From assembly GCA_029248885.1 (NCBI GenBank), contig JAQWIL010000030.1:1431-65430 (forward strand): a DNA stretch of 64,000 bases, written 5' to 3'. Numbering within the stretch: the first letter of the stretch is position 1; every line of letters begins with the position of its first letter. This DNA is from Flavobacteriaceae bacterium (lineage in GTDB: Bacteria; Bacteroidota; Bacteroidia; Flavobacteriales; Flavobacteriaceae). Of this stretch, positions 9,922-26,796 are shown piece by piece. The position numbers and the translations under genes were made by a program. Below the pieces are notes generated by a model, which made no database searches, had not been told where the DNA came from, and saw nothing but the letters and a program-made list of their open reading frames with translations.

Positions 9922-10524
9922 TTAATTAAAAATTCGCCGAAATGCAGCACGGATCAACATCCATAATGAAATGATAATGATTTCAAGGTCTAAAAAGAAA
10001 GATTGCCTGTTGATATATTCAATGTCACTATTGATTCGGTTATGAATGGACGCATTATTGGGTGTGTCCCCGCGGTATCCTCGGATTTGGGCCAGTCCTG
10101 TCAGCCCTGGTAGCGCGTTGTGACGTTTATCCATCTCCTCTTGTCCGACTACACGCTGATAATAAGCGTTATATTCTGGCAGATGTGGTCGAGGGCCGAC
10201 AACAGACATTTCCCCTTTTATGATATTCAGGACTTGTGGAAGTTCATCGACACCCGAATTGCGAAGCAAAGTGCCCAACCAAGTAATTGGCGTGATTGTC
10301 GGTTCTCCTGGGTTTGGGTGGGCGGCATTTTTGGGAAATGTTCTAAACTTGTAACACCAAAACAACTTACGGCCTTTCCCTTCGCGCTGATGGCTAAAAA
10401 ACAATGAGCCTCCGCCGATAAAAAGATTCAATACCCACAATACGGGTACAAGCCATGACATGACCAAAAACAGAAGTGCCAAGGCAAACAATACGTCAAA
10501 ACTCCGCTTGAGTAGAGATTCCAA
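9922..10524 (-). CDS. Small monotopic phosphoglycosyl transferase ('bacterial sugar transferase', PglC/WbaP C-terminal type)
   Basis: KRSFDVLFALALLFLV re-entrant helix, FRTF, DELPQVLNIIKGEMSVVGPRP and PGLTGLAQI motifs. A -7 box inside the long ORF-track version argues for the TTG at 10524 as the start (about 200 aa). Confidence 0.8.
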   Translation of the reverse strand: MESLLKRSFDVLFALALLFLVMSWLVPVLWVLNLFIGGGSLFFSHQREGKGRKLFWCYKFRTFPKNAAHPNPGEPTITPITWLGTLLRNSGVDELPQVLNIIKGEMSVVGPRPHLPEYNAYYQRVVGQEEMDKRHNALPGLTGLAQIRGYRGDTPNNASIHNRINSDIEYINRQSFFLDLEIIIISLWMLIRAAFRRIFN

Positions 10525-10563
10525 ATAGGGTATGGTTGGTGTTATACAATGATTAAACGCTGG

Positions 10564-10571
10564 CAAAAGTA
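10564..10571 (-). promoter_or_regulatory. -7 box (TACTTTTG) for the small phosphoglycosyl transferase gene
   Basis: Exact match, 39 nt upstream of TTG 10524. It lies inside the over-extended track ORF. Confidence 0.35.
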
Positions 10572-10606
10572 AAAAATTGCATACTACCTGCTCAAAAAAT
10601 GATTTG

Positions 10607-10614
10607 TACTTTTG
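10607..10614 (+). promoter_or_regulatory. -7 box (TACTTTTG) for rfbBACD
   Basis: Exact match, 29 nt upstream of ATG 10644. Confidence 0.4.
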
Positions 10615-10643
10615 AAGCAACTCTTTCGTTATCTATTGAACGT

Positions 10644-13797: not shown

Positions 13798-14976
13798 ATG
13801 CTACAACGATTTATCCATAGTGCAAGAATGAATGTGTTTGAAAGTGCGCGGTTTTATTATTGGTTATTAGTGGCACTAACAAGCTATTTTTTGCTAAATC
13901 GTTTTTTACAAAAATTATCCTATGTGTATTTGGATGACCGATGGACAGAGCTTAAAATTGGTGAAGGGGTTTTATTTGGGTTAGCTTATGGATTTATCCT
14001 TATTAGTGCTTGGTTGTTACGAAGAAAAATACCCCGTTATGTGTTTTGGTGTTGGGGTGGTATCGTGCTTATATTCTTGATTAACGAATTTCGATTTGCT
14101 TGGGGTAACCCTGATTATAGTCTTATGGAAAGCCTTACCAAAAGTCAAGGCTACTATACGGCAAAATTCACAATGCCCTTGTTGTTTTGGGGGGTTTGGT
14201 CGGTGTTAAAAAATGCAAATCACTATGGGGGTGTTTTTGTTAATCAACTACGTGTTTTTTTAACAATCAATGCTGTTTTCATCGTCTCTGGAGCAGTGTT
14301 TGGTGTTTCTCTTTTTGAAAGTTATCCATTGTCTGGTCGATGGGGGTATAGCGGGTTGTTGTGGCACTTAACCTTTCATTGTGCTTCTTATGGGATTCTT
14401 TTAATTTACCTACTGCAGAAAGAGCATAAAGATTGGGTGAGTGTTTTTCTATTTGTATCGGCATTGTTGTTACTGGGACAAAAAGCTGGGATATTGTATC
14501 TATTACTAATTTTTATGCTTATGATCGTTAAAACTACTTTGCTTCGGACAATTATTCTAATAAGTAGTGTGGTGGGGATTTTTTCTGCTCCTGTATGGAT
14601 GCCTATTGTAGTGGGTTTTATTCCCTTTTGGGAGAAAGTATACACCAATCACGGAGTGTGGGGGGTGATTTCTTCTTTAAGAAACGAAATGGTTGAAAGT
14701 ATTTGGTCTGAAATTAATCAAAACCTTAATTTTTTTGATCTTTTCTTTGGTAGTGAAATCAGGTTTAGAAGGCGTATTGAAATGATGCCATTGGATTTAC
14801 TAATTTATTTCGGAACAATCGGGTTGTTTCTAAAGAGCTCTTTTTTATATAAAACAATCTCACATTGGGCTTTGAGCATTCCTATCATAGTTGCTTGTTT
14901 TGCAGGCGGTATATATGAAGCTCCTTTGTGTATGCTTTTTTATTTTATAATTATAAAAGATATAAAACAAAGCTAA
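13798..14976 (+). CDS. Polytopic membrane protein, O-antigen ligase/polymerase-like (Wzy_C-like)
   Basis: About 10 hydrophobic segments and a loop, SGRWGYSGLLWHLTFHCASYG, that resembles the R..G...H motif of Wzy_C proteins. Family assignment is tentative. Confidence 0.4.
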   Translation: MLQRFIHSARMNVFESARFYYWLLVALTSYFLLNRFLQKLSYVYLDDRWTELKIGEGVLFGLAYGFILISAWLLRRKIPRYVFWCWGGIVLIFLINEFRFAWGNPDYSLMESLTKSQGYYTAKFTMPLLFWGVWSVLKNANHYGGVFVNQLRVFLTINAVFIVSGAVFGVSLFESYPLSGRWGYSGLLWHLTFHCASYGILLIYLLQKEHKDWVSVFLFVSALLLLGQKAGILYLLLIFMLMIVKTTLLRTIILISSVVGIFSAPVWMPIVVGFIPFWEKVYTNHGVWGVISSLRNEMVESIWSEINQNLNFFDLFFGSEIRFRRRIEMMPLDLLIYFGTIGLFLKSSFLYKTISHWALSIPIIVACFAGGIYEAPLCMLFYFIIIKDIKQS

Positions 14977-15032
14977 AAAATTTACATCCCAAAAGCTTAC
15001 TTCAAAAATAAAATGAAGCCTCTAAAAAAAGA

Positions 15033-16340
15033 CTAAGAAAGTACAGTTTGCTCTATTATTCCACGAACTTTCTTTAGCTCAATTTTTGACTTTTTTACTT
15101 TATTTATATTATTGGGATTATATACGAAATACCCTATTCCATTGTGTTCTCCATTTTTGATAGCTACAAAACTTATATGCTTTTTGAAATTAGTAATCGA
15201 CAATTCTTTGTCTACAGTTGATCTTATACTATCTCCATCCCTGATGTCTGAGCTATATATTAACTCAACAAACAAACTCGATCCTCGGTTATCAATGTTA
15301 AAAACCTTTGCTTTGTCTTTCTCCATTATGACTGAATTTAAAATTTCTTCCGCTTTCTTAGCGGTTTGATCAGAACTAAACTCAATCAAAAAGTCTCTTG
15401 ACATTCTTGGAAGTACTTCTTTTACTCCTTTTATTTTTAAACTACTTACAAATTCATTATGCTTATTTATTCTCCAATAAAACGTTAGGTTTTTATGGGG
15501 TTGTTGATGAAGTCCTGTTGCTAAAAAAAGATTAATGTCTGATCTTAATAATTGTCCAATTAAATCGTCATACTGTTTGAGTAAAACAATCAAAGGGTCA
15601 AAACCTTTTTTACAATACCATTCTGGATTTGTTAAACTTCCTTTGTAGGCTGCTGAGTTAAATAAGTAATGGTGTTGTATGTGGGCTCCTGAATTTAAAA
15701 ATAAATTTGAAAAATCCGGTTTATGCTTTTTATATAAGAATATAAAAGTATCCGACAATAATAAATCTAATATTACAGCTTTTATACCAGAATTTTTTCT
15801 TTGGGAAAATAGTTTAATGTATTTGGGATATTTCTTTATTGGAACGACACGAAGCAGTCCGGTAGCTAGCGTTAATAGAGTGCCTATACTTAACTTGCCG
15901 CTTGCATTGTCATTTACACTTTGGTGAATAGAGTTATACAGAGATTTTATAAACCAATTACCACTTACTTTTGTGATAGTCCATGGGTCGGGAATAAAAA
16001 ATTTAGGATTATTAAGATTGTTTTTGGCGTTGAAAGGCGATACAGCTCCGACTGTTTTACCTTTTGATTCTAAATACTCAAATATTTGATTTTCATTTGT
16101 TTTCGTTATGTCCCCAAGCCTAAATATTTTATGTTCCTTAAATGATTTTCCAGTATGAACAGTGGCCCATTGAATCCAAGGTTCAAGTAATTCATGTTTA
16201 TTTTCAGAAGTGGTTTCAACAACTTTAAAATTCTCGAACAGTTTTTTAAAATTTGGTAAATCTCCGTTTTTAATATAATACTTGATAAAGTCAAAGTTGA
16301 GTTCATTTAAGCCTAGGAGTATTGTGGTTTTTTTATTCAT
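15033..16340 (-). CDS. Alkaline-phosphatase-superfamily (NPP/phosphodiesterase-like) protein of unknown role
   Basis: The N-terminus TILLGLNELNFDFIKYYIKNGDLPNFKKL...LEPWIQWATVHTGKSFKEHKIFRLGD resembles the layout of type I phosphodiesterase/AlkP-family proteins. It has NE where the canonical metal-binding DG is expected. HIQHHY lies further on. Start re-set to ATG 16340. Confidence 0.35.
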   Translation of the reverse strand: MNKKTTILLGLNELNFDFIKYYIKNGDLPNFKKLFENFKVVETTSENKHELLEPWIQWATVHTGKSFKEHKIFRLGDITKTNENQIFEYLESKGKTVGAVSPFNAKNNLNNPKFFIPDPWTITKVSGNWFIKSLYNSIHQSVNDNASGKLSIGTLLTLATGLLRVVPIKKYPKYIKLFSQRKNSGIKAVILDLLLSDTFIFLYKKHKPDFSNLFLNSGAHIQHHYLFNSAAYKGSLTNPEWYCKKGFDPLIVLLKQYDDLIGQLLRSDINLFLATGLHQQPHKNLTFYWRINKHNEFVSSLKIKGVKEVLPRMSRDFLIEFSSDQTAKKAEEILNSVIMEKDKAKVFNIDNRGSSLFVELIYSSDIRDGDSIRSTVDKELSITNFKKHISFVAIKNGEHNGIGYFVYNPNNINKVKKSKIELKKVRGIIEQTVLS

Positions 16341-17133
16341 GGTCAATTAGTTTTTCAATTAGAGAAATATAATAATGAGTAAACGTAAAAATTAGAGCTT
16401 TTAGCATTTTAATAATCCATTTTTGATTTTCAAAATGGGTTGAGAACATATGAACAAACTGCGGTATTCTTTTGATTTTATTTCTTGAAATTTGTTCAGA
16501 TGAAATACGGTAAAATATTAGTTTTTGATTTATTCGAACACATGGTTTTAGCGAGTTTTTCATGATGTTCAGCCAAAAAAGATAGTCTTCTACTGAAATC
16601 ATTTTTTTTGACTCATCAAATTTTAAATCCCCAATTATTTTTTTTTCTATTATAACACTAGAAGTCGGAATGAAGTCTTTTAATAATAATCGGTTATAAG
16701 ATATTTTAAAAATTGATGACTTTATAAATAAGCTAAAATTAATTTTAAGCTCATTAATAAAGTTTTGCTTTTTAGTGCAAGAAAATTCGCATTTATTTAA
16801 ATACATACTTTCTAATTGTATTTGTGTTTTTTTGGGATGCCAAATATCATCTGAATCACAAAATGCTAACCATTTACCTTTTGCTTTGCTTATTCCAAAG
16901 TTTCTAGGTGCTGCAGGGCCCCCAGTATTTTCTTCTAATTTATAAAATGATATCTTATTGGTTTTTATATAATCTTTCAGCTGCCCTTCTGTTTGATCTG
17001 TTGATTTGTCATCTACAACAATAATTTCTATATGTTTATACGTTTGTCCAATTATAGAGTCTATTGTGCTATTAATATAATTTTCAGCGTTGTATGTGGG
17101 AATTATAACCGAAACAAGCTCTTCATTTTTCAT
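16333..17133 (-). CDS. Glycosyltransferase family 2
   Basis: VSVIIPTYNAENYINSTIDSIIGQTYKHIEIIVVDDKSTD and a DSDD (DxD) motif. Confidence 0.85.
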   Translation of the reverse strand: MKNEELVSVIIPTYNAENYINSTIDSIIGQTYKHIEIIVVDDKSTDQTEGQLKDYIKTNKISFYKLEENTGGPAAPRNFGISKAKGKWLAFCDSDDIWHPKKTQIQLESMYLNKCEFSCTKKQNFINELKINFSLFIKSSIFKISYNRLLLKDFIPTSSVIIEKKIIGDLKFDESKKMISVEDYLFWLNIMKNSLKPCVRINQKLIFYRISSEQISRNKIKRIPQFVHMFSTHFENQKWIIKMLKALIFTFTHYYISLIEKLIDHE

Positions 17134-18680
17134 AAGATTCCAGAAATTATTTCTTTAATCTTGTTGTTACGTTTTATACTAAAGAATTGATTTAAATCCA
17201 ATTCCTCGCCACTAACTTCAGTCCATTTTATGTTCCCAGCCTTTATACTTTCAATAATCTTGTTCTCATCATTTAATGAAGATGCATACAAACTGTCGTA
17301 AGCTTCAATTGTTCCGTTATTAATAATTGACTGTATTGTTTTCACTCCTTTTTCTGTGATCCTAAAGATGGCTTTTTTAGCAGATTTATGAAAAACTTCT
17401 TCAATAAGTTGATGATATCTAAATTGAAAGCAATATAGAAATCGTATTGCGACTCGAATTGGTTCTTCTTTACTTAAATTCAGCAACTTATCTATTTTTA
17501 ATTTGTTAGCCTCAAATTTTGAAAAAATGTTTTTTTGATAACCCGATGAGTCATAAAAAGATCGTGACAGGCTTATTATAGGCTTACCTAAAACTGATGC
17601 TTCAAAAAAAGCAGATCCTCCATTGAGAACTACAACATCTGATTCCTCAATCAATGAAGCGGTTAAAATGTTTGAGTCTTCCGAAACATAGCTAATTCCA
17701 TGCTTTCTGCAGTAGGCCTTGTAATAGTCAATACAGTTTTTTGCATCCTTTCCAAAAATGTTTTTAGCCCATATAGGATGAAACCGAATAATTATATCAT
17801 TTTTATTAATAGTACCATTCGAAAATAAATAAGTTAAACCTTCTAAAGGGTGATCCCACTCATTATTTTTTCTTTGGAACTCACTTAAATGTTCCATTCT
17901 ACTTGAGGGAAGAAATAATACTTTAGCCTTTGAATTTGGATTTATTTTTTTCCACTCAGTTTCGATATGCTTGTCATTGAAGGACATAAATTCAGATTGA
18001 ACTGATTTTAACTTCCTCTTAGCTACAGGCAATAAAGCCCTATCAATTTGGTTGCTTGTTAGTGGTTTGTTTTTGAATTGGTTCCAAATTTTTGTTAAGC
18101 TCTCCGTCCCTAATGGACCCTCGTTTGGTGTAAGTAACATCCCTTTCCCAAACCAGGGTCTTTCAACACCAATAAAAGGGATTTTTAAATCCCGACAAGC
18201 AAACCTTATTGCTCGCATTAAATCCATTCTTCCATTAAAACCAAAAACAAAATCTATATTTTGTTTTTGAATAAATTCTTGAAAATTATACCTCATAGCA
18301 TTTGTAGACTCCAAAAGGGTGCTATAATGTGGGCTTGATTTAATGTTTTTCACTTCATTCGGCGTTTCGGCTCTTGAAGACGTGAATAATGTTGATAGTG
18401 GAATTTCTGAATCTAATTTATTTAAATCCTTGATTGGTTTTGGAGAAACTTTGTGGTCTAGATTGTGAAAAGCTTTTAATCCAAATTCTTTGCAAATCAA
18501 ACATGTAAGTTTTGAAGAATTTTTGATTTTTTTTGTAATCAAGGTATTGCAAGACGTAGCCCCTCCATTGCAACCAACCAAAAACACGTTGTTGTTTGTT
18601 TTGTCTAACAAGCTCTTTAAGAAAATTAAATGCTCATTGTGAGGTCTGTATGAGTACGTATTAACTATTGCGACGTTCAT
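17130..18680 (-). CDS. Uncharacterised 516-aa protein; candidate non-canonical glycosyl- or phospho-transferase
   Basis: No family recognised with certainty. The C-terminal half (VLFLPSSR...IIRFHPIW...ESDVVVLNGGSAFFEASVLGKPIISL) has the flavour of GT-B / Capsule_synth (KpsS-like) / TagF-like enzymes. The N-terminus has a C-x7-C...C-x2-C cysteine pattern. Confidence 0.3.
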   Translation of the reverse strand: MNVAIVNTYSYRPHNEHLIFLKSLLDKTNNNVFLVGCNGGATSCNTLITKKIKNSSKLTCLICKEFGLKAFHNLDHKVSPKPIKDLNKLDSEIPLSTLFTSSRAETPNEVKNIKSSPHYSTLLESTNAMRYNFQEFIQKQNIDFVFGFNGRMDLMRAIRFACRDLKIPFIGVERPWFGKGMLLTPNEGPLGTESLTKIWNQFKNKPLTSNQIDRALLPVAKRKLKSVQSEFMSFNDKHIETEWKKINPNSKAKVLFLPSSRMEHLSEFQRKNNEWDHPLEGLTYLFSNGTINKNDIIIRFHPIWAKNIFGKDAKNCIDYYKAYCRKHGISYVSEDSNILTASLIEESDVVVLNGGSAFFEASVLGKPIISLSRSFYDSSGYQKNIFSKFEANKLKIDKLLNLSKEEPIRVAIRFLYCFQFRYHQLIEEVFHKSAKKAIFRITEKGVKTIQSIINNGTIEAYDSLYASSLNDENKIIESIKAGNIKWTEVSGEELDLNQFFSIKRNNKIKEIISGIL

Positions 18681-19788
18681 AGTAAAACCTATTAATTGTT
18701 AAATAAATTAAAATCGGAATTGGCCAATAATCTAGTATTCTGTTTGTAACCAAAATTAAGCTTAACGCAATAAAAAAATTAAAATATTTTGTTTTATATG
18801 AATCCCTAACTAATTTGACAATAAAACATAGAAAAATTAAAAAAAGAAGAACCCCAAAGCTGGTTGCGTATGTGACATACTGACTATCTCCTGAATTGTA
18901 AAATGAGTTATTGATGTTGCCAATAAAAAAGCTTTTAGGATTCTCGAATAATATAAATAAGTCCTCAAGAAAATCAATCCTAGTTAATATGCTAGCAGAA
19001 CTGCCCAAGGTGTCTGATGAATTTAAAAAAAATAATAACGATTCTAATTTTAGTTTCCAATGGTATCCAGGCATATAAAAAAGTACCGTTTCGAGATTAT
19101 ATATTATAATTATTGATGAGATGAAAACAAAAAAAAGTTGTTTGCCTTTTCTTAAAAATCTTAGGTAAAGAAATATTAAAATTGGCATTAATGCTTGAGT
19201 CATTATCAAGTTTATGAAAATTAATGCTTTTAAAACTCTCTTAGTAATTTTATTATGGCTCAGGTTTTTAATTGAAACCTCATATAAATAAATTAATATA
19301 AGTCCATATGAACTGGGGTTGCCAACACCTCCAATAAAGGCTTTATTGCCCCATATGGTATTACTGTTTTGTAGATTGTAGAAGTCTAAAGAAACCCACA
19401 AGAAAAAAGAAACTAATAGCGTTTGATCAATTGCCTTAAAATTAAATTTAGCTGTAGACCCCATAAGTATAGGTACCGCTAAAAAATTATTAATGAACAG
19501 CCAGTCTCTTGACTCAAAAAAGGGTATTCTTATTAGAATTAATATCAGTGCTATAGAAAAAAACCCTAAGGCAAGTATGTTTTTTTTGAAGATATATTTG
19601 TTGGGTTTAACAATAAAAATATATATCATTGAAATTGATATAAATTTTAAAACTTGCCTAAGACTTTCGCCACCCCGAACCACCCCTTCGTTAAATTCAA
19701 AAAAATAGTTAATTATTTGTAAGTTAAAAACTAATGCAAGCCCAAAATAGATTAAAATGCTGTGCTGGAGAGGTAATTTAGTTTTCAC
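18661..19788 (-). CDS. wzy: O-antigen polymerase-like membrane protein (Wzy)
   Basis: Polytopic. Loop NKAFIGGVGNPSSYGLIL resembles the Wzy_C G..GNPN motif. GTG start. Adjacent to wzx. Confidence 0.55.
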   Translation of the reverse strand: MKTKLPLQHSILIYFGLALVFNLQIINYFFEFNEGVVRGGESLRQVLKFISISMIYIFIVKPNKYIFKKNILALGFFSIALILILIRIPFFESRDWLFINNFLAVPILMGSTAKFNFKAIDQTLLVSFFLWVSLDFYNLQNSNTIWGNKAFIGGVGNPSSYGLILIYLYEVSIKNLSHNKITKRVLKALIFINLIMTQALMPILIFLYLRFLRKGKQLFFVFISSIIIIYNLETVLFYMPGYHWKLKLESLLFFLNSSDTLGSSASILTRIDFLEDLFILFENPKSFFIGNINNSFYNSGDSQYVTYATSFGVLLFLIFLCFIVKLVRDSYKTKYFNFFIALSLILVTNRILDYWPIPILIYLTINRFYYERRNS

Positions 19789-19808
19789 TTTTGTTGAGTG
19801 TCAAATAT

Positions 19809-21110
19809 CTAAAATACAAGGTATGAAATTAAAACAGCAAAAAAACCTGCTAAATGGTATTTTATAAGGTGGGTTGAAAATTGTTTATCTTCCATGTAGT
19901 ACATAATAATCGAAGCAATTGAAGCTATTAAAAAAGAAATTGTTGTAGTTATAGCTGCAAAAAAAACTCCTTGGCTTTTCAAAAAAAATGCGTTTAAGAT
20001 GATGTTTATTAGGGCTGTTAATATTACCATTAAACTAATTTTTAAACTTTTACCTTGGCAATATAAATTCCTGCTATATAAAAGAAAAAATGTGTAAGTA
20101 TAATATGCTACCAATACCAGCTGATTAATCTTCACACTTCTAAGTAGTTTTTCTCCACTCCACCCCGTAAATATTTTTAAAATTTCTTCACTTAATATAA
20201 TTGCTAAAGTTGTGGAAGCAGATATTATAAAGATTAAATTTCTGCTTTCTCTAAGCACTGAAAGTCTGTTTTTGTAGTTGTCGTAAAATGAAACTGAATA
20301 ATAATTATTTAATGCTATGTATAAAATTAATATTATAGTAGCTATTTTATATGATGCGCTATACTCTGCAAGATCACTAATTGAAAAGTACGATGAAATG
20401 AAAAGTTGGTCGGAATAATTCAATAAATTATTAAACAAAGAATACATAATTAATGGTGCAGAAAAAATTGCTGCCTTTTTTATTTCTTTTTTAAAAAATT
20501 TGTTTGGCCGTTTAACTTTTATCCTTTTTAGAGTAAGTAGGAGAATTAGGAAAAGAAAAAGCAACTCTAAAGAAATCTTCGTTTCTGCATCAATCTCATC
20601 GAAAATAAAAAGCAGTAGAACAACTGATATAACCTTTGAAACTCCAGAAAATATTTGATGGTTTCTAAACTTCCTATCTTCTGAAATACTGGTCAAATAG
20701 TATTGAATCCAATAATTAAAATAATAAAATAAAAAAGAGATTGGAAGAAGCCAAAAAAGTTTAGGGTTTAAGGTAAAGTTTTTGATAAAGTTGGGAGAGT
20801 TTAAAACAATAATCGTTGTAATTAATACAGCTATTGATGAAATAATTCCAAAAAAGAAAATATTTGATGAAAACTTAAGGAAGAGCTCTTTGCTTGAATA
20901 AGTTGATTTGAATTTTAAAATCGCTCCCGGCAAATTAAGACTGAAAACGGCAAAAATTAATTGAGTGTAAATAGTATAAATCTCAATGTCTGTAAATGTT
21001 TTCTCGTCTAAGAATCTTATGACAATGAATGCAACTATTAAATAACTTCCCTGAGCAAATACACTTGAAATCAAGTAATTCGAAACTTTTTTTATTTCTT
21101 GAATTGTCAA
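19809..21110 (-). CDS. wzx: Polysaccharide flippase (MOP/Wzx family)
   Basis: 433 aa with about 12 hydrophobic segments and the N-terminal pattern typical of Wzx. TTG start with no nearby ATG. Confidence 0.7.
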   Translation of the reverse strand: MTIQEIKKVSNYLISSVFAQGSYLIVAFIVIRFLDEKTFTDIEIYTIYTQLIFAVFSLNLPGAILKFKSTYSSKELFLKFSSNIFFFGIISSIAVLITTIIVLNSPNFIKNFTLNPKLFWLLPISFLFYYFNYWIQYYLTSISEDRKFRNHQIFSGVSKVISVVLLLFIFDEIDAETKISLELLFLFLILLLTLKRIKVKRPNKFFKKEIKKAAIFSAPLIMYSLFNNLLNYSDQLFISSYFSISDLAEYSASYKIATIILILYIALNNYYSVSFYDNYKNRLSVLRESRNLIFIISASTTLAIILSEEILKIFTGWSGEKLLRSVKINQLVLVAYYTYTFFLLYSRNLYCQGKSLKISLMVILTALINIILNAFFLKSQGVFFAAITTTISFLIASIASIIMYYMEDKQFSTHLIKYHLAGFFAVLISYLVF

Positions 21111-21111
21111 A

Positions 21112-22047
21112 CTAAATTAAATTTTCAAAGTGTTTTATTGTTTTTGTAAGACCCTCGACAAGTTGGGTTTTAGGCTTCCAGCCACTTAGCTTTTCATGTG
21201 CTAAGTCTATGTTTGGCTTCCTTTGTTTTGGGTCATCCTGTGGTAGGGGGTGAAATGATATTTTCGACTTTGACGCTGTAATTTCAATAATTGTTTTTGC
21301 TAATTCAATCATTGAAAATTCATGAGGGTTTCCCAAATTAATGGGTCCAGTAAAATCATCTTCTGTAGTCATCATTCTTAGCATACCTTCAATTAAATCA
21401 TCTACGTACTGAAAAGATCTTGTTTGAGTTCCGTCTCCATATATAGTAATCTCCTCTCCTTTTAGTGCTTGAGTAATAAAGTTTGAAACTACACGACCAT
21501 CGTCGGTGTCCATCTTGGGACCATAAGTATTAAAAATTCTGATTATTTTAACCTTAACTTTATTTTGTCTGTAGTAATCCATGAAAAGTGTCTCTGCACA
21601 CCTTTTCCCTTCATCATAGCAGGATCTTATGCCTACAGGATTCACGTTTCCCCAATAATCTTCTGTTTGAGGATGAACTGAAGGATCCCCATAAACTTCA
21701 CTAGTGCTAGCTTGAAGTATTTTTGCGCCTACCCTTTTTGCTAACCCCAAGGTGTTTGTTGCCCCTAATACTGAGGTTTTTAAAGTCTTTATAGGATTAT
21801 ACTGATAATGCACAGGTGAAGCTGGGCAGGCCAAGTTATAAATTTCGTCCACTTCCGCATAATATGGTTCACATATATCGTGTCTAATCAATTCAAAATT
21901 GATGTTGTCAAGAAAGTTTTTAATGTTTTTTTTGTTTCCAGTAAAGTAGTTGTCTAGACATAGCACCTCATTGTTCTCATTGAGTAGTCTTTCACATAGA
22001 TGTGAGCCTACAAAACCTGCTCCTCCTGTAATTAGAATTCTTTTCAT
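21112..22047 (-). CDS. uxs: UDP-glucuronate decarboxylase (UDP-xylose synthase)
   Basis: [40 protein letters not shown] and RIFNTYGP motifs, very close to my memory of UXS1. Start re-set to ATG 22047. Confidence 0.9.
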
Positions 22048-22054
22048 TTTTATT

Positions 22055-23098
22055 TCATTTAATGATATCAAAATTTACTCGATCTCCTTTTTCAACATTT
22101 TCAATTACTTTTTTACCAAGTATTTCATCAAAATATTTGGGATGTAAGCCATAGCCAGGTCTGACACTACGAATATCTTTGGTGGAAATCGTTTCACCTT
22201 TTTTTAAATCATTAGAAAAATATAATGATCTAGCAAATTGTTTGCCTTCTTCCATCTTTTCCGTAACAGGATAGTCATCTTTTCCGATAGCTTTTTCTGT
22301 TAATCGAACTTGATCTACCATTTCTTTAAATTCTTGGGGGGTTAAAGAAAATTCTGCGTCAGGGCCACCCAATTTTCTGTCTAAAATAAAATGCTTTTCA
22401 ATAATTTTTCCACCCATGGCTACAGAGCTAATGGGAACAACATTTCCTAAAGTATGATCTGATAAGCCAATTTGAGTATTAAAATCCCTTTTGAATGAAA
22501 CCATAGTATTCAAATTGGCATCCTCAATTGGTGCTGGGTAGCTTGATGTGCATTTAAGAAGTGCTATTTCGTTATTTCCCTCTTGTCTGCAGGTTTGTAA
22601 TGCCAGAATTATATCTTCCTTGCTAGCAACCCCTGTTGAAATAATAATTGGCTTTCCTTTCTTGGCAACATAACGGATAAGAGGAATGTCTGTTATTTCA
22701 AAGGATGCTATTTTATAGGCAGGAACATTAAAATTTTCTAAAAAGTCTACAGCCGAGAAATCAAAAGGCGAGGAAAAGCACTCAAGTCCAACAAGACTTG
22801 CTTCATGAATTAATTCTTCGTGCCACTCCCAAGGAGTGTAAGCTTCTTTATAAAGCTCATAAAGTCTTTTTCCTTCCCAGATAGTTCCTTTTATAAGAAA
22901 ATCTTCTTTTTCGCAGTTTAAAGTGATTGTATCCGCTGTGTAGGTTTGTAATTTAATACAGTCTGCACCCGCTTCTTTAGCTGCATGTATCGTTTTCTTA
23001 GCAATTTCAATGTTACCATTATGGTTGGCTGAAAGCTCGGCTATTATAAATGTTTTTTCACCGCCTATTGTGAAATTACCGATCTTAAATTTCTTCAT
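22055..23098 (-). CDS. pseI: Pseudaminic acid synthase (NeuB family)
   Basis: [38 protein letters not shown] and GLSDHTLG motifs plus a C-terminal SAF-like domain. The operon context supports the call. Confidence 0.85.
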
Positions 23099-23948
23099 TT
23101 TGTAAAATGCTATTTATTTCAAAGTCTAATGATTTATTGTCTCTTATTTTTTCAATTATTATAGCCCCATCACCACTTTTGACCATTAATGGGTTGGTGC
23201 TAAGTATTGTTCCAGGAGCTTCATTACCCTCGTACTCCCTTGTTTTTACCCAGTCGATTATCAACTTTTCTTTATTATAAAAGCTGAAAGCCCCAGGATA
23301 AGGCATTGATTGTGCGCGCACCCAATTATAAATATCATCAGATTTCTTATGCCAATTAATTATTCCATCCTTTGGAGTTCGTTTGCCAAAATAACTTGCC
23401 TTAGAGTTGTCCTGAGTAATTCTTTTAAAATTCCCTTTTTGAAGTTTTTCAATAACTAATTTAATAATTGTAGGATAAAGAGACTTATATTTTTCTAATA
23501 GGTCTTGTCCTGAATCAGTGAGTGAAATGTCTATTTTTTTTTGCTCAATTATGTCTCCTGTATCACAACCCTCGTCAATAAAATGCGCCGTTACACCTGT
23601 AATCTGCTCTCCATTTATAATTGCCCAAACATGTGGCGTTCTACCTCTATATTTAGGTAGTAACGACCCGTGTAAATTGATTGACCCTAGTGTTGGGAAT
23701 TTAAAAATATTCTCCTTCAGAATAAATATATAATTTACAGAAATAATTAAATCTAATTTAACTTTATTAAGAAGTTGTTCTGCTTGCTCTGTATTAGGTT
23801 TCCCAACATAAATAAGTGTGTTGTTTGATTTAGCGTATTGTTGTAAATCCAAGGATTTGTTATCTGTGAAAATTATCTTGGGTTTTATTTTTAGTTGTAT
23901 TAAAGTTTCAAACCCTAAATTTCCTGATGAAAAGTAACCAATTCTCAT
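23085..23948 (-). CDS. Formyltransferase (Fmt/ArnA N-domain type with Formyl_trans_C domain), in the operon position of PseH
   Basis: SINLHGSLLPKYRGRTPHVWAIING (the N-x-H and SLLPxxRG signature) and the DEGCDTGDII catalytic Asp region. C-terminal domain ASYFGKRTPKDGIINW...YNWVRAQSMPYPGAF. ATGA overlap with pseG. Confidence 0.8.
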   Translation of the reverse strand: MRIGYFSSGNLGFETLIQLKIKPKIIFTDNKSLDLQQYAKSNNTLIYVGKPNTEQAEQLLNKVKLDLIISVNYIFILKENIFKFPTLGSINLHGSLLPKYRGRTPHVWAIINGEQITGVTAHFIDEGCDTGDIIEQKKIDISLTDSGQDLLEKYKSLYPTIIKLVIEKLQKGNFKRITQDNSKASYFGKRTPKDGIINWHKKSDDIYNWVRAQSMPYPGAFSFYNKEKLIIDWVKTREYEGNEAPGTILSTNPLMVKSGDGAIIIEKIRDNKSLDFEINSILQNEEI

Positions 23949-24934
23949 AACAATGACTGAATTATGTTAATTATTCTATTACCACTCATCCCATCAAACC
24001 ATTTCTTTTGGTTCATTAATAATTCATCACGAGATGTTTTGTTAAGCAATAGATGACTTATATTGTTGATGAAAAAAGTTTTTTCTAATTTCCTAAAATC
24101 CCCTACACCATTGATTAGTCTTTCATTTAAAAACCCTTTGTAAATTTTTTCTTGATTTTCAACATAATAGCCTGAAATAACTGGCTTGTTGATTGCACAG
24201 ACTTCGTATAAAACTGTGCTAGCAGGAACAATAGCTAGCGATGAAGTGGCTATTAAATTAGCCATTTGTTGAGCATCTATATTTTGGTAAAATAAAACCT
24301 TCTCGTTTTTTGAATCCTCTAGTTGCTTTTGATAAGCTTTGCCTGTTACAACAATAATTTTATTAAAGAGATCAAACTCAACAATCCATGGGAGTACTTT
24401 GGCAGAGATATTCATTGGATCAGCTCCCCCGAAATTTATAAAAACTTGGTTGTTTGCCTTATTTTTGTTTTTTATGTGATTAAAGTCAAGAAACGGTTTT
24501 CTTAGAATTGCATAGGGCGGTCCAAGAAATAGTCTTGTATATTGAGCTTTCTGAAAATTGTTTTGTTTTAGACCCGCACAATGATTAATTACCGCATCTG
24601 CATACATAAATTCCTCACAAAGATCATCGATGTAGAGAATTTTGAAGCCGAGATCTTTAGCTTTTTTTTGATATTCGCTATTGAACTGATAACCATCTAG
24701 AATCAATAGCTTAAACCCAGCCTTTTTATATTTTAAAAATAAAGAAAATTCATCCGTGTCATCGTCTATACTATCGATATTTATATGTTTTGGTATTATC
24801 TCAACACACGATTTCTTATGAACAATTAAGCTGTAATTCCATGTGGTTTCTTGAATCATGTCGATTAAGGATAACGCCCTGTAGATATGACCCAAACCAG
24901 TTGTTGCATTTCCCTCTGCTCTAAATAAGATCAT
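23945..24934 (-). CDS. pseG: UDP-2,4-diacetamido-2,4,6-trideoxy-beta-L-altropyranose hydrolase
   Basis: N-terminus MILFRAEGNATTGLGHIYRALSL matches the PseG R.(D/E)....G.GH..R motif. GT-B-like size and operon context. Confidence 0.7.
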   Translation of the reverse strand: MILFRAEGNATTGLGHIYRALSLIDMIQETTWNYSLIVHKKSCVEIIPKHINIDSIDDDTDEFSLFLKYKKAGFKLLILDGYQFNSEYQKKAKDLGFKILYIDDLCEEFMYADAVINHCAGLKQNNFQKAQYTRLFLGPPYAILRKPFLDFNHIKNKNKANNQVFINFGGADPMNISAKVLPWIVEFDLFNKIIVVTGKAYQKQLEDSKNEKVLFYQNIDAQQMANLIATSSLAIVPASTVLYEVCAINKPVISGYYVENQEKIYKGFLNERLINGVGDFRKLEKTFFINNISHLLLNKTSRDELLMNQKKWFDGMSGNRIINIIQSLL

Positions 24935-25616
24935 GAATTAATTTGAATTTTAATTCCGCAAGTTTCCAATCAATTAATGTATCAATGTCTTGAACCTGGG
25001 TTCTTTCTAGCTCAATTCCAAAGGTGGGTTTAGATAGTAATTTCTTGCTTTTTTTGAAGCTACTTACTCGAATAAAATAAAACATCCCCGCATCGTGATA
25101 AAACGTTTTTAAATCCTGCGTTCTAGTTTTTTCAAATTGATTGTCAGCAAACACCATGGTTTGATCTGTTAGCTTATTTAGTCGCCGTTGAATAGGGTGG
25201 TCATACTCTGTAACTGGAAAGACGCTATTAAAGTTTTCATTATAAATGAGATTAAATGCTCTTTTTAAAAGGTTTTTGTCAATTAGAGGAGCAACTGGAT
25301 ATAAGCAGCAAATAAATTCTGCACTTTTATACCTCTCATAAGTTAAAATTTCAGATATAACTTCAGCAGTTGTTGCATTATCGTTAGATGAGCTTTCGCT
25401 TCTAAGAATATCAGCTTTTGCGCCATATTTCTTACAAATTTCTGCAATTTCATTGTCATCTGTGGATACGAAGACATCGTCAAAAATATTCGATGATATA
25501 GCTGATTCAATAGAATAGCTTATAACAGGCTTGCCCAGAAATTCTTTAATGTTTTTACGAGGTATGCGTTTACTGCCTCCCCTTGCTGGTATTACGCAAA
25601 CCACTTTATTTTTCAT
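24921..25616 (-). CDS. pseF: Pseudaminic acid cytidylyltransferase (CMP-NeuAc synthetase family)
   Basis: VCVIPARGGSKRIPRKNIKEFLGKP motif, 231 aa, operon context. Confidence 0.8.
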   Translation of the reverse strand: MKNKVVCVIPARGGSKRIPRKNIKEFLGKPVISYSIESAISSNIFDDVFVSTDDNEIAEICKKYGAKADILRSESSSNDNATTAEVISEILTYERYKSAEFICCLYPVAPLIDKNLLKRAFNLIYNENFNSVFPVTEYDHPIQRRLNKLTDQTMVFADNQFEKTRTQDLKTFYHDAGMFYFIRVSSFKKSKKLLSKPTFGIELERTQVQDIDTLIDWKLAELKFKLIHDLI

Positions 25617-26781
25617 AAAAATGATTAATTCTATTTATTAAATAGTTTTGATCATATTCCGCAAGTGTCGGAAACATAGCTATCGAAATACAATTCTTGA
25701 TGTATTCTTGACTTGAAATAAGATTGAATGATTTTTTGTTAAAGTAGTATGGCATTAAATGAACTGGAAAATAATGAATCTGACAGTGAATGTTGTTTTC
25801 TCTAAGGTAGAGGTATAGTTCATCTCGTTTTTCGACTTCAATAACATAAAGGTGATATGCGTGACCTTCAATATATCCCGATTGACCTTTTATCCATTTC
25901 TTGTTTTGAAATGCCTCGTAATAAGTCTTTGCAATTCTAGTTCTTTTTTCAATTCCTTTATCTGCTTTACTCAATTGACTAATTCCCAAGGCAGCTTGGA
26001 AGTCTGTGAGTCTATAGTTATAACCTAAATTTTGCATTTCATAATACCACAGTGGGGCTTGCTGATTTTCTTGGAAGAAACCACTAGAATAAGAAAATAA
26101 TTTTTTGTCTTTAGTTATTCCGTGTGTCCGAAGCAGGTTTATTTTGTCTGCCAAAGCTTTATTCCTTGTGGTAATCATTCCGCCTTCACCACAAGCAATA
26201 TGTTTTACAGGATGAAAGGAAAAAATGGCTAAATCAGCATAATAGCCATTTCCACATTTCTGCTTTAACCCAGAGCTGTCTATGAAAAATCCACCCGGTG
26301 AATGACAAGAGTCTTGAATTATCCAAGCGCCGTACTCGTCAGCTATTTTTCTCAAGCTTTCAAGATTAACTGGTCTGCCTGCAAAGTCTACAGAAACAAT
26401 CCCTTTTATGTTTTCATGTTCTTTAAACAATTGCTCAACATGATTTAAATCAATTAGATATGTATTTGGATCAATATCACAGAAGATTACCTCACCCCCA
26501 CAGTATTCGATACAGTTTGCACTTGCAGCAAAAGTAATTGTAGGGCAAACTACTTTGTCTCCAGGCTTTACGCCCAACGCTAGAGCACATAGGTGAAGAG
26601 CCGATGTGCCATTATTAACAGCAATTCCATAATCTGCATCTACATAATCTGAGAAGACTTGTTCGAATTCAGCAATTTTTGGGCCTTGAGTTAAAAAGTC
26701 ACTTTTTAAGGTTGATATGACCGCTTCAACATCGTCTTGATCAATTGACTGTTTTCCATAAGGAATTATGTTTTGTGGCAT
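25606..26781 (-). CDS. pseC: UDP-4-amino-4,6-dideoxy-N-acetyl-beta-L-altrosamine transaminase (DegT/DnrJ/EryC1 family)
   Basis: IPYGKQSIDQDDVEAVISTLKSDFLTQGPKIAEFE N-terminus and FHPVKHI (PLP lysine region). Confidence 0.85.
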   Translation of the reverse strand: MPQNIIPYGKQSIDQDDVEAVISTLKSDFLTQGPKIAEFEQVFSDYVDADYGIAVNNGTSALHLCALALGVKPGDKVVCPTITFAASANCIEYCGGEVIFCDIDPNTYLIDLNHVEQLFKEHENIKGIVSVDFAGRPVNLESLRKIADEYGAWIIQDSCHSPGGFFIDSSGLKQKCGNGYYADLAIFSFHPVKHIACGEGGMITTRNKALADKINLLRTHGITKDKKLFSYSSGFFQENQQAPLWYYEMQNLGYNYRLTDFQAALGISQLSKADKGIEKRTRIAKTYYEAFQNKKWIKGQSGYIEGHAYHLYVIEVEKRDELYLYLRENNIHCQIHYFPVHLMPYYFNKKSFNLISSQEYIKNCISIAMFPTLAEYDQNYLINRINHFYEK

Positions 26782-26796
26782 AAAATACTTTTTTTT

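Follow-up and report, generated by a model that had tools for sequence, protein, structure and literature searches.

Many bacteria carry pseudaminic and legionaminic acids on their capsules, O-antigens, pili and flagella, where these sugars shape phage and immune recognition; to our knowledge, very little has been learnt about the enzymes that couple them to polysaccharides. We addressed this question at a polysaccharide cassette of a Flavobacteriaceae bacterium, contained in a 64,000-nt stretch of contig JAQWIL010000030.1 (assembly GCA_029248885.1, positions 1,431 to 65,430 of the forward strand; hereafter the window). The cassette encodes PseB, PseC, PseF, PseG and PseI, enzymes of pseudaminic acid (Pse) donor synthesis; which of its proteins then transfers the sugar? 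An initial annotation, made from the sequence without database searches, had singled out a 516-amino-acid (aa) protein, here called P0001, as a KpsS-like or Capsule_synth-like enzyme and the best candidate. Our analysis backs this choice through a sub-threshold match to the Capsule_synth model PF05159, the predicted fold, profile comparisons, an HP motif, the context of relatives at each of the 11 informative loci, and elimination of other candidates. We consider it highly probable that P0001 is a glycosyltransferase of the KpsC fold group that uses a cytidine monophosphate (CMP)-activated ulosonic acid, and we put the probability that its donor in this cassette is CMP-Pse at roughly 70%.

The P0001 gene is one unbroken ATG-to-stop frame on the minus strand, and the plus-strand frames over the same interval are riddled with stops (Table 1). 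Its translation contains the strings previously quoted from it, VLFLPSSR at aa 254-261, IIRFHPIW at aa 297-304 and SDVVVLNGGSAFFEASVLGKPIISL at aa 347-371. The upstream open reading frame (ORF) for a 375-aa membrane protein stops at 18661, giving a 20-nt overlap with the P0001 gene, and the start codon of the downstream GT2 glycosyltransferase gene at 17133 shares an ATGA with the P0001 stop; the coupling to a wzy candidate and to the GT2 gene that had been claimed agrees with these coordinates. The G+C content of the gene is 32.2%, similar to that of the whole cassette (13798-27910), with 43-46% in the flanks. Homologues ranging from 93% down to ~23% identity show that this is not a chance ORF.

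An exhaustive search of 1.84 billion representatives yielded 256 representative clusters (50% identity) matching P0001 at E ≤ 1e-3, 103 of them at E ≤ 1e-30, whereas a word-indexed search with P0001 returned 15 relatives. Most homologues are 510-530 aa long and align over their full length. The family spans at least three phyla and is uncommon: among the 401 Bacteroidota genomes sampled, it was present in 5, counting the source genome. A scan of genome loci with a 12-sequence P0001 alignment gave three loci; the nearest genome match was an uncultured Flavobacteriaceae metagenome-assembled genome (MAG), and further matches came from Marinobacter halodurans and a Bdellovibrionota MAG. NCBIfam offered no meaningful match. 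P0001 belongs to no named family, and its own family goes unrecognized by annotation profiles. The earlier remark that it could not be placed in a family holds for the curated libraries, in which nothing scores above its cut-off; the label orphan goes too far, given the 256 clusters that match it.

The predicted structure linked P0001 to characterized enzymes. An AlphaFold2 model of P0001, built on 12 homologues, reached a mean predicted local distance difference test score (pLDDT) of 80.6 and a predicted template modelling score of 0.85, and was poor at residues 38-82 only. In an exhaustive structural search of 48,161 chains, the top match was KpsC (6mgb; Z 14.6, 279 aa aligned, root-mean-square deviation (rmsd) 3.9), followed by a second KpsC structure (6mgd, Z 14.2) and by WbbB of family GT99 (5fa0, Z 11.6). 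Generic enzymes of the GT-B fold plateaued at Z ≤ 10.4, and the polysialyltransferase 5wc6 (Z 9.9) lay within that generic range. The model arranges the two Rossmann-like domains of P0001 as they are arranged in KpsC and WbbB, and in the ESM Atlas the closest named clusters bear PF05159. The initial annotation had likened the C-terminal half to GT-B, Capsule_synth and TagF-type proteins; judged by the model, the entire protein, not that half alone, is KpsC-like.

Profile comparisons connected P0001 to the same enzymes. Sequence searches of the Protein Data Bank (PDB) with P0001 alone and with a 12-sequence profile gave no matches. With a 67-sequence profile, KpsC and WbbB ranked first, at marginal E-values of 1.4e-3 to 3.4e-3. 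Alignment of the P0001 family against KpsC N-modules with hhalign, using as reference two modules from gammaproteobacterial genomes, reached a probability of 95% (E 9e-9, 313 columns). Against KpsS the family gave E 3.5e-3 at 9% probability, and blastp against four KpsS-like proteins gave E 0.07 or worse; the hhalign comparisons with small KpsS and KpsC C-module alignments, run in local mode, paired the motifs consistently, at probabilities of only 9% and 2%, and among the hhalign results we rely on the one for the KpsC N-modules alone. The weakest phmmer matches of P0001 supplied a further bridge: P0147 (34.1 bits), P0155 (31.2 bits) and P0159 (26.0 bits), together with P0162 and P0150, exceed the PF05159 cut-off. 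These distant relatives share N149, R151, S259, E263, H301, P302 and E360 with P0001, all invariant in their joint alignment (A3), and also keep four Cys of P0001. Since relatives that pass PF05159 align with the same invariant residues, the alignments place P0001 within the KpsC/KpsS superfamily, on a divergent branch out of reach of the Pfam model.

We then compared conserved residues, scored in 67 diverse P0001 homologues, with the active-site motifs of KpsC/KpsS-type enzymes. [quoted passage not shown] H301-P302 of P0001 aligns to the HP of both KpsC and KpsS. The S356-E360 segment is the best-conserved one common to P0001, KpsC and WbbB (there 'GFEAL') in the profile search against the PDB. 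In the N-terminal domain, E173, within 'GVER', aligns at the level of profile alignments with the Glu in 'RLEDGF' of KpsC and in 'FEEGY' of KpsS; the KpsC residue at this position is the general base Glu66 (PMC10148158).

The site of the nucleophile differs. After the first strand of the modelled C-terminal domain, P0001 carries the S-S-x-x-E motif, whose E263 lies 38 aa ahead of HP; in the canonical PF05159 proteins compared here, all of which have QxxxD, the Asp lies 34-41 aa ahead of HP. This spacing suggests that E263 replaces the nucleophile Asp, with the register between S-S-x-x-E and QxxxD shifting by ~1 residue between alignments. P0001 also carries a Cys4 insertion that KpsC, KpsS and WbbB lack. 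The Cys pattern reported earlier is real in that four Cys exist and are invariant in the 67 homologues, but the first spacing is C-x6-C, not C-x7-C. Zinc binding by this insertion is plausible on the strength of the conserved Cys, in a region that is modelled badly (pLDDT <50 at residues 38-68).

Next, we analyzed the gene neighborhoods of family members. Because NeuB is present in 263 of the 401 sampled Bacteroidota genomes, co-presence within a genome was uninformative, and we used adjacency within 10 kb. Nonulosonic-acid genes lay within this distance of the family member in all 11 loci with enough flanking sequence (this window, L001, L002, L003, L009, L010, L011, L012, L026/27, L028 and L031); P0098, P0059, P0118 and P0143 were left out of the count, their contigs being too short. 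A NeuB-family synthase was encoded in 10 of the 11, and L003 has pseB, pseC and pseG only. In L028 and L031, the homologue begins 27-55 nt past pseI, closing a complete pse operon. Most loci have a PseI-type synthase; L002 (Marinobacter halodurans), L011 and L012 have one of NeuB/LegI type. The P0001 family therefore looks like a set of nonulosonic-acid transferases in general, with the local pathway setting the donor.

Other genes of the window's cassette recur in these loci. GT2 homologues of 30-50% identity adjoin family members in L001, L002, L003, L026/27 and L031, and a GT2 gene also adjoins P0098, in whose locus an unassigned 416-aa ORF takes the position of the alkaline-phosphatase-like gene. 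Upstream of the family members of L001, L002, L026 and L028 there are homologues of the 375-aa membrane protein, and alkaline-phosphatase-like homologues follow the GT2 gene in L026/27 (46-49% identity) and also in L001. Homologues of the UDP-xylose synthase (UXS; UDP, uridine diphosphate) of 59-76% identity occur near family members in L001, L002, L003, L028 and L031, and the family genes accompanied by UXS come from Flavobacteriaceae, Marinobacter and a Bdellovibrionota MAG, as well as from two loci of metagenomic or MAG origin.

Within the cassette itself, elimination leads to the same protein. The GT2 enzyme and P0001 are its only soluble elongating transferases, and the remaining unassigned ORFs encode two polytopic membrane proteins and the alkaline-phosphatase-like protein. 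The source genome contains one NeuB-family gene, the cassette pseI. In agreement with the earlier statement that the cassette holds no recognizable nonulosonic-acid transferase, we found no other candidate there. Among the hidden Markov model comparisons that the initial annotation had suggested, PF05159 scored below threshold, and PF04464 (TagF-like), GT52 and Maf-type profiles gave no match; specifically, P0001 matched none of GT52 (PF07922), CST-I (PF06002) or MptE-like/Maf (PF01973) at E ≤ 0.1. Maf, GT52 and CST-I were likewise not found genome-wide, a weak negative in a genome that is 78% complete and with PF07922 and PF06002 controls that gave no signal.

Could P0001 instead be a β-Kdo transferase like KpsC, KpsS, WbbB or KrkA, moving Kdo from housekeeping CMP-Kdo onto the repeat unit, a terminator or a linker, with Pse moved by another enzyme? 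Gram-negative bacteria make CMP-Kdo, and such an enzyme would require no dedicated donor genes. The three top structural matches are all β-Kdo transferases, and KpsC and WbbB top the PDB profile matches as well; however, no solved Pse-transferase structure was among the PDB sequence or structure matches, so Kdo enzymes may lead as the sole solved members of the fold group. All three structurally characterized Kdo-transferase families conserve QxxxD (PMC12887879), where P0001 has S-S-x-x-E. Moreover, the family follows nonulosonic-acid modules in every informative locus, directly after pseI in two, and a Kdo assignment would leave the cassette without any Pse transferase. We regard Kdo transfer by P0001 as unlikely.

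Two further possibilities place P0001 outside ulosonic-acid transfer. A GT-B enzyme acting on the donor, such as a hydrolysing 2-epimerase-like or PseG-like hydrolase, or a non-catalytic assembly scaffold, is hinted at by the Foldseek ranking, in which the UDP-GlcNAc 2-epimerases 4nes and 1f6d lead by E-value, and by faint Epimerase_2 matches in a few family members. Those epimerase alignments reach template modelling (TM) scores of only 0.26-0.29 by query at an rmsd of 11-12 Å; KpsC has the best TM score and rmsd within the same list and wins the exhaustive search. The cassette already encodes a PseG above its equivalog cut-off, and the invariance of N149, R151, E173, E263, H301, P302 and E360 favors catalysis, making this reading very improbable. 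The TagF-like option raised in the initial annotation, or another phosphotransferase dependent on a cytidine or other nucleoside diphosphate (CDP or NDP) donor that adds a phosphodiester-linked substituent, fits the presence of a cytidylyltransferase gene and an alkaline-phosphatase-like gene in the block, and the Glyphos_transf clusters of the Atlas are similar (TM 0.31-0.33 by query). The resemblance to TagF itself (3l7i, Z 8.5) covers a single domain, 137 C-terminal residues, and ranks far below the two-domain match to KpsC. P0001 has no PF04464 match at E ≤ 0.1, and two of its features, the HP motif and the Glu that pairs with the KpsC general base, typify CMP-ulosonic-acid transferases. 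We dropped the TagF-like option as scarcely credible.

Several points weigh against assigning P0001 as a Pse transferase. PF05159 is the sole Pfam signal in P0001, and at 16.2 bits (E 0.0076, aa 292-381) it falls below the gathering cut-off of 20 bits; the same model gives any match in only 3 of 12 close homologues, and a Capsule_synth search of the source genome at E ≤ 0.001 did not pick up the gene. Pairwise comparisons with KpsS-like and KpsC-like proteins reach no significance, the blastp E-values being 4e-3 or worse. The family conserves neither Q nor D at the QxxxD position, and with S-S-x-x-E in its place the chemistry of P0001 may differ from that of its characterized relatives. The best structural matches transfer Kdo, not Pse, and CMP-Kdo is available in any Gram-negative cell. 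The family as a whole is not Pse-specific, because the synthases of L002, L011 and L012 are NeuB/LegI-type, and the choice of donor rests on context. Adjacency is expected for any transferase in a polysaccharide cluster, and the loci are few and partly non-independent. The genome completeness of 78% leaves room for a Pse transferase encoded elsewhere. Finally, the evidence for Pse transfer is computational throughout.

From the fold, the homology bridge, the conserved motifs and the genomic association, we infer a scheme for the donor, acceptor, catalytic roles, stereochemistry and metal binding of P0001. It would be a cytoplasmic, membrane-peripheral enzyme with the modified GT-B fold of KpsC, KpsS and WbbB, taking CMP-Pse made by the products of the adjacent pseB, pseC, pseF, pseG and pseI, and would add Pse to an undecaprenyl-diphosphate-linked repeat unit ahead of Wzx flipping and Wzy polymerisation. 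In the C-terminal domain, H301-P302, S356 and E360 would hold CMP, and E263 of S-S-x-x-E would stand in for the nucleophile Asp of QxxxD; in the N-terminal domain, E173 would serve the acceptor hydroxyl as general base. The invariant Cys4 insertion would probably bind zinc and shape the acceptor or membrane face. The acceptor could be a xylose added by the coupled GT2 enzyme, a speculative assignment hinted at because a UDP-xylose synthase and the GT2 gene travel with the family. Pse(7-formyl)-(2->4)-Xyl-(1->3)-FucNAc is a natural glycan of Pseudomonas aeruginosa 1244 pilin (PMC6222762).

How does P0001 compare with characterized systems? KpsC (GT107; E. coli and Thermosulfurimonas dismutans; 6mgb, 6mgd, 8fuw) is its best structural match across both domains and its best profile match, sharing the HP motif, the Glu of the nucleotide-binding helix and the N-domain Glu aligned to Glu66. 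Both are soluble or peripheral, on prediction for P0001, and both would use a CMP-activated 2-keto-3-deoxy sugar acid, namely Kdo for KpsC and, as predicted, Pse for P0001. In contrast, KpsC has QxxxD with the nucleophile Asp160 where P0001 has S-S-x-x-E263; P0001 has two extra parts, the Cys4 insertion, which is ~60 residues long and follows strand 2, and a helical extension of ~90 residues at the C-terminus; and P0001 is encoded in a Wzx/Wzy cluster, KpsC in an ABC-transporter capsule cluster.

The closest functional parallel is KpsS1 of Acinetobacter baumannii (GT118), described in the citing paper as a retaining Pse5Ac7Ac transferase related to KpsC and WbbB, and the sole characterized polysaccharide Pse transferase that we found cited (Walklett et al. 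2024, cited in PMC12887879). On that description, it does the job predicted for P0001, using CMP-Pse to attach Pse to a sugar of a capsule or O-unit, belongs to the same fold group and is likewise encoded next to a pse module; its Glu132, in 'YE', would correspond to E173, in 'VE', each a Glu after a hydrophobic residue that ends an N-domain strand. KpsS1, compared by description, is a PF05159 member ~30% identical to E. coli KpsS, whereas P0001 falls below the PF05159 cut-off, and the KpsS-like proteins that we examined keep P-L-Q-x-x-x-D, unlike P0001. Two other PF05159 proteins, Gtr59 and KpsS2, have been tied to nonulosonic-acid linkages by an adjacency argument, and Gtr59-like genes have been reported beside a Pse module in Bacteroides fragilis (PMC4487303). 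Gtr59 of Acinetobacter, a predicted acinetaminic acid (Aci) or legionaminic acid (Leg) transferase, thus owes its assignment to adjacency, as does P0001 (PMC4487303); compared by description only, it passes PF05159 and P0001 does not.

[quoted passage not shown] They differ from it in keeping QxxxD with an Asp proven as nucleophile, in transferring Kdo and in lacking the Cys4 insertion. As the treatment of KrkA illustrates, deeply divergent sequence families of the same fold have been treated as separate GT families (PMC12887879). P0001 may likewise found a separate family, one with the KpsC/WbbB fold, too little pairwise similarity to GT99, GT107, GT118 or GT140 to be of use, a zinc-binding Cys4 insertion, and a Ser-Ser/Glu exchange of the Gln/Asp pair that would imply a Glu nucleophile or another, possibly inverting, mechanism; we advance this composite proposal tentatively, at somewhat less than even odds. 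If it is true, Pse and Leg might also be linked with a different anomeric outcome.

Whichever mechanism applies, the P0001 family adds a second group of candidates, distinct in sequence, for polysaccharide nonulosonic-acid transfer. A family profile would allow such linkages to be assigned in cluster-based serotype prediction for Flavobacteriaceae, Marinobacter and others, and the replaced nucleophile motif tests whether Asp-based double displacement is obligatory for the fold. Retaining Kdo-like transferases, it has been suggested, may not be readily adaptable to sugar acids whose C5 substituent is equatorial, as in Leg or neuraminic acid (Neu) (PMC12887879). The members in L002, L011 and L012, found with NeuB/LegI-type synthases, would test this suggested limit.

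Table 1 Positions in the window of the P0001 gene, its conserved motifs and neighboring genes.
Feature	Position	Strand	Evidence or remark
Gene for KpsC/KpsS-like ulosonic-acid transferase P0001, predicted CMP-pseudaminic acid transferase	17130..18680	-	ORF, fold match, homologues, genomic context
Cys4 insertion C37-x6-C44-x15-C60-x2-C63, putative structural zinc site	18492..18572	-	Four Cys invariant in 67 homologues
N-domain block N149-G-R151 ... E173 (reads 'GVER')	18162..18236	-	N149, R151 invariant; E173 ≥90% conserved
S259-S260-R-M-E263, at site of QxxxD nucleophile motif	17892..17906	-	S260, E263 invariant in 67 sequences
HP motif H301-P302, predicted CMP-phosphate-binding	17775..17780	-	Invariant in 67 sequences; aligns to HP of KpsC and KpsS
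S356-A-F-F-E360, predicted nucleotide-binding helix of C-terminal Rossmann domain	17601..17615	-	E360 invariant in alignment A3
GT2 glycosyltransferase, ATGA-coupled downstream of P0001	16333..17133	-	PF00535 at 3.9e-33; conserved partner
Polytopic membrane protein, 375 aa, candidate Wzy polymerase	18661..19788	-	At least 5 hydrophobic segments; no Pfam family
Alkaline-phosphatase/NPP-like protein, 437 aa, last gene of block, not a glycosyltransferase	15033..16346	-	Atlas neighbors by features and structure are PF01663-type phosphodiesterases; no Pfam match
UDP-glucuronate decarboxylase (UDP-xylose synthase, UXS)	21112..22071	-	Human UXS1 (2b69), E 2e-121, 408 bits, full length
Donor-synthesis module: pseB, pseC, pseF, pseG, formyltransferase in pseH place, pseI	22055..27813	-	PseB/C/F/G/I above NCBIfam equivalog cut-offs
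Formyltransferase between pseG and pseI	23085-23948	-	ArnA N-domain E 2e-41; PseJ only 2e-13
UDP-glucose dehydrogenase, paired with UXS	30182-31597	-	
Polytopic membrane protein after rmlD	13798-14976	+	No Pfam/NCBIfam family; second polymerase, ligase or acyltransferase possible
Small cytidylyltransferase	27911-28339		
Initiating phosphoglycosyl transferase, small Bac_transf type	9922-10620	-	
Initiating phosphoglycosyl transferase, WecA/MraY-type Glycos_transf_4	33514-34701	+	

The cluster is of the Wzx/Wzy type. Wzx is encoded in the cassette, and one of the two family-less polytopic membrane proteins is presumably Wzy. The flanks hold Ugd, GlmS, rmlBACD, Wza, Wzz and the two initiating transferases (Table 1). 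Because a formyltransferase occupies the place usual for pseH, an acetyltransferase gene, the Pse donor probably carries a 7-N-formyl group. The same arrangement occurs in locus L009, where the formyltransferase is 45% identical.

Two side observations concern relatives of P0001. The distant relatives P0147 (732 aa) and P0162 (884 aa), which belong to the clade with Cys4 and S-S-x-x-E, are fused to an S-adenosylmethionine (SAM) methyltransferase or GT2 domain, an arrangement suggestive of bifunctional enzymes, attaching a sugar and modifying it or attaching two. In L026, a phage-integrase fragment and small helix-turn-helix genes (10224-10490) come right after the block of wzy, P0001-family, GT2 and alkaline-phosphatase-like genes; these neighbors fit mobility of the module, and we note them beside the G+C content of the window's cassette, 32% against 43-46% in its flanks.

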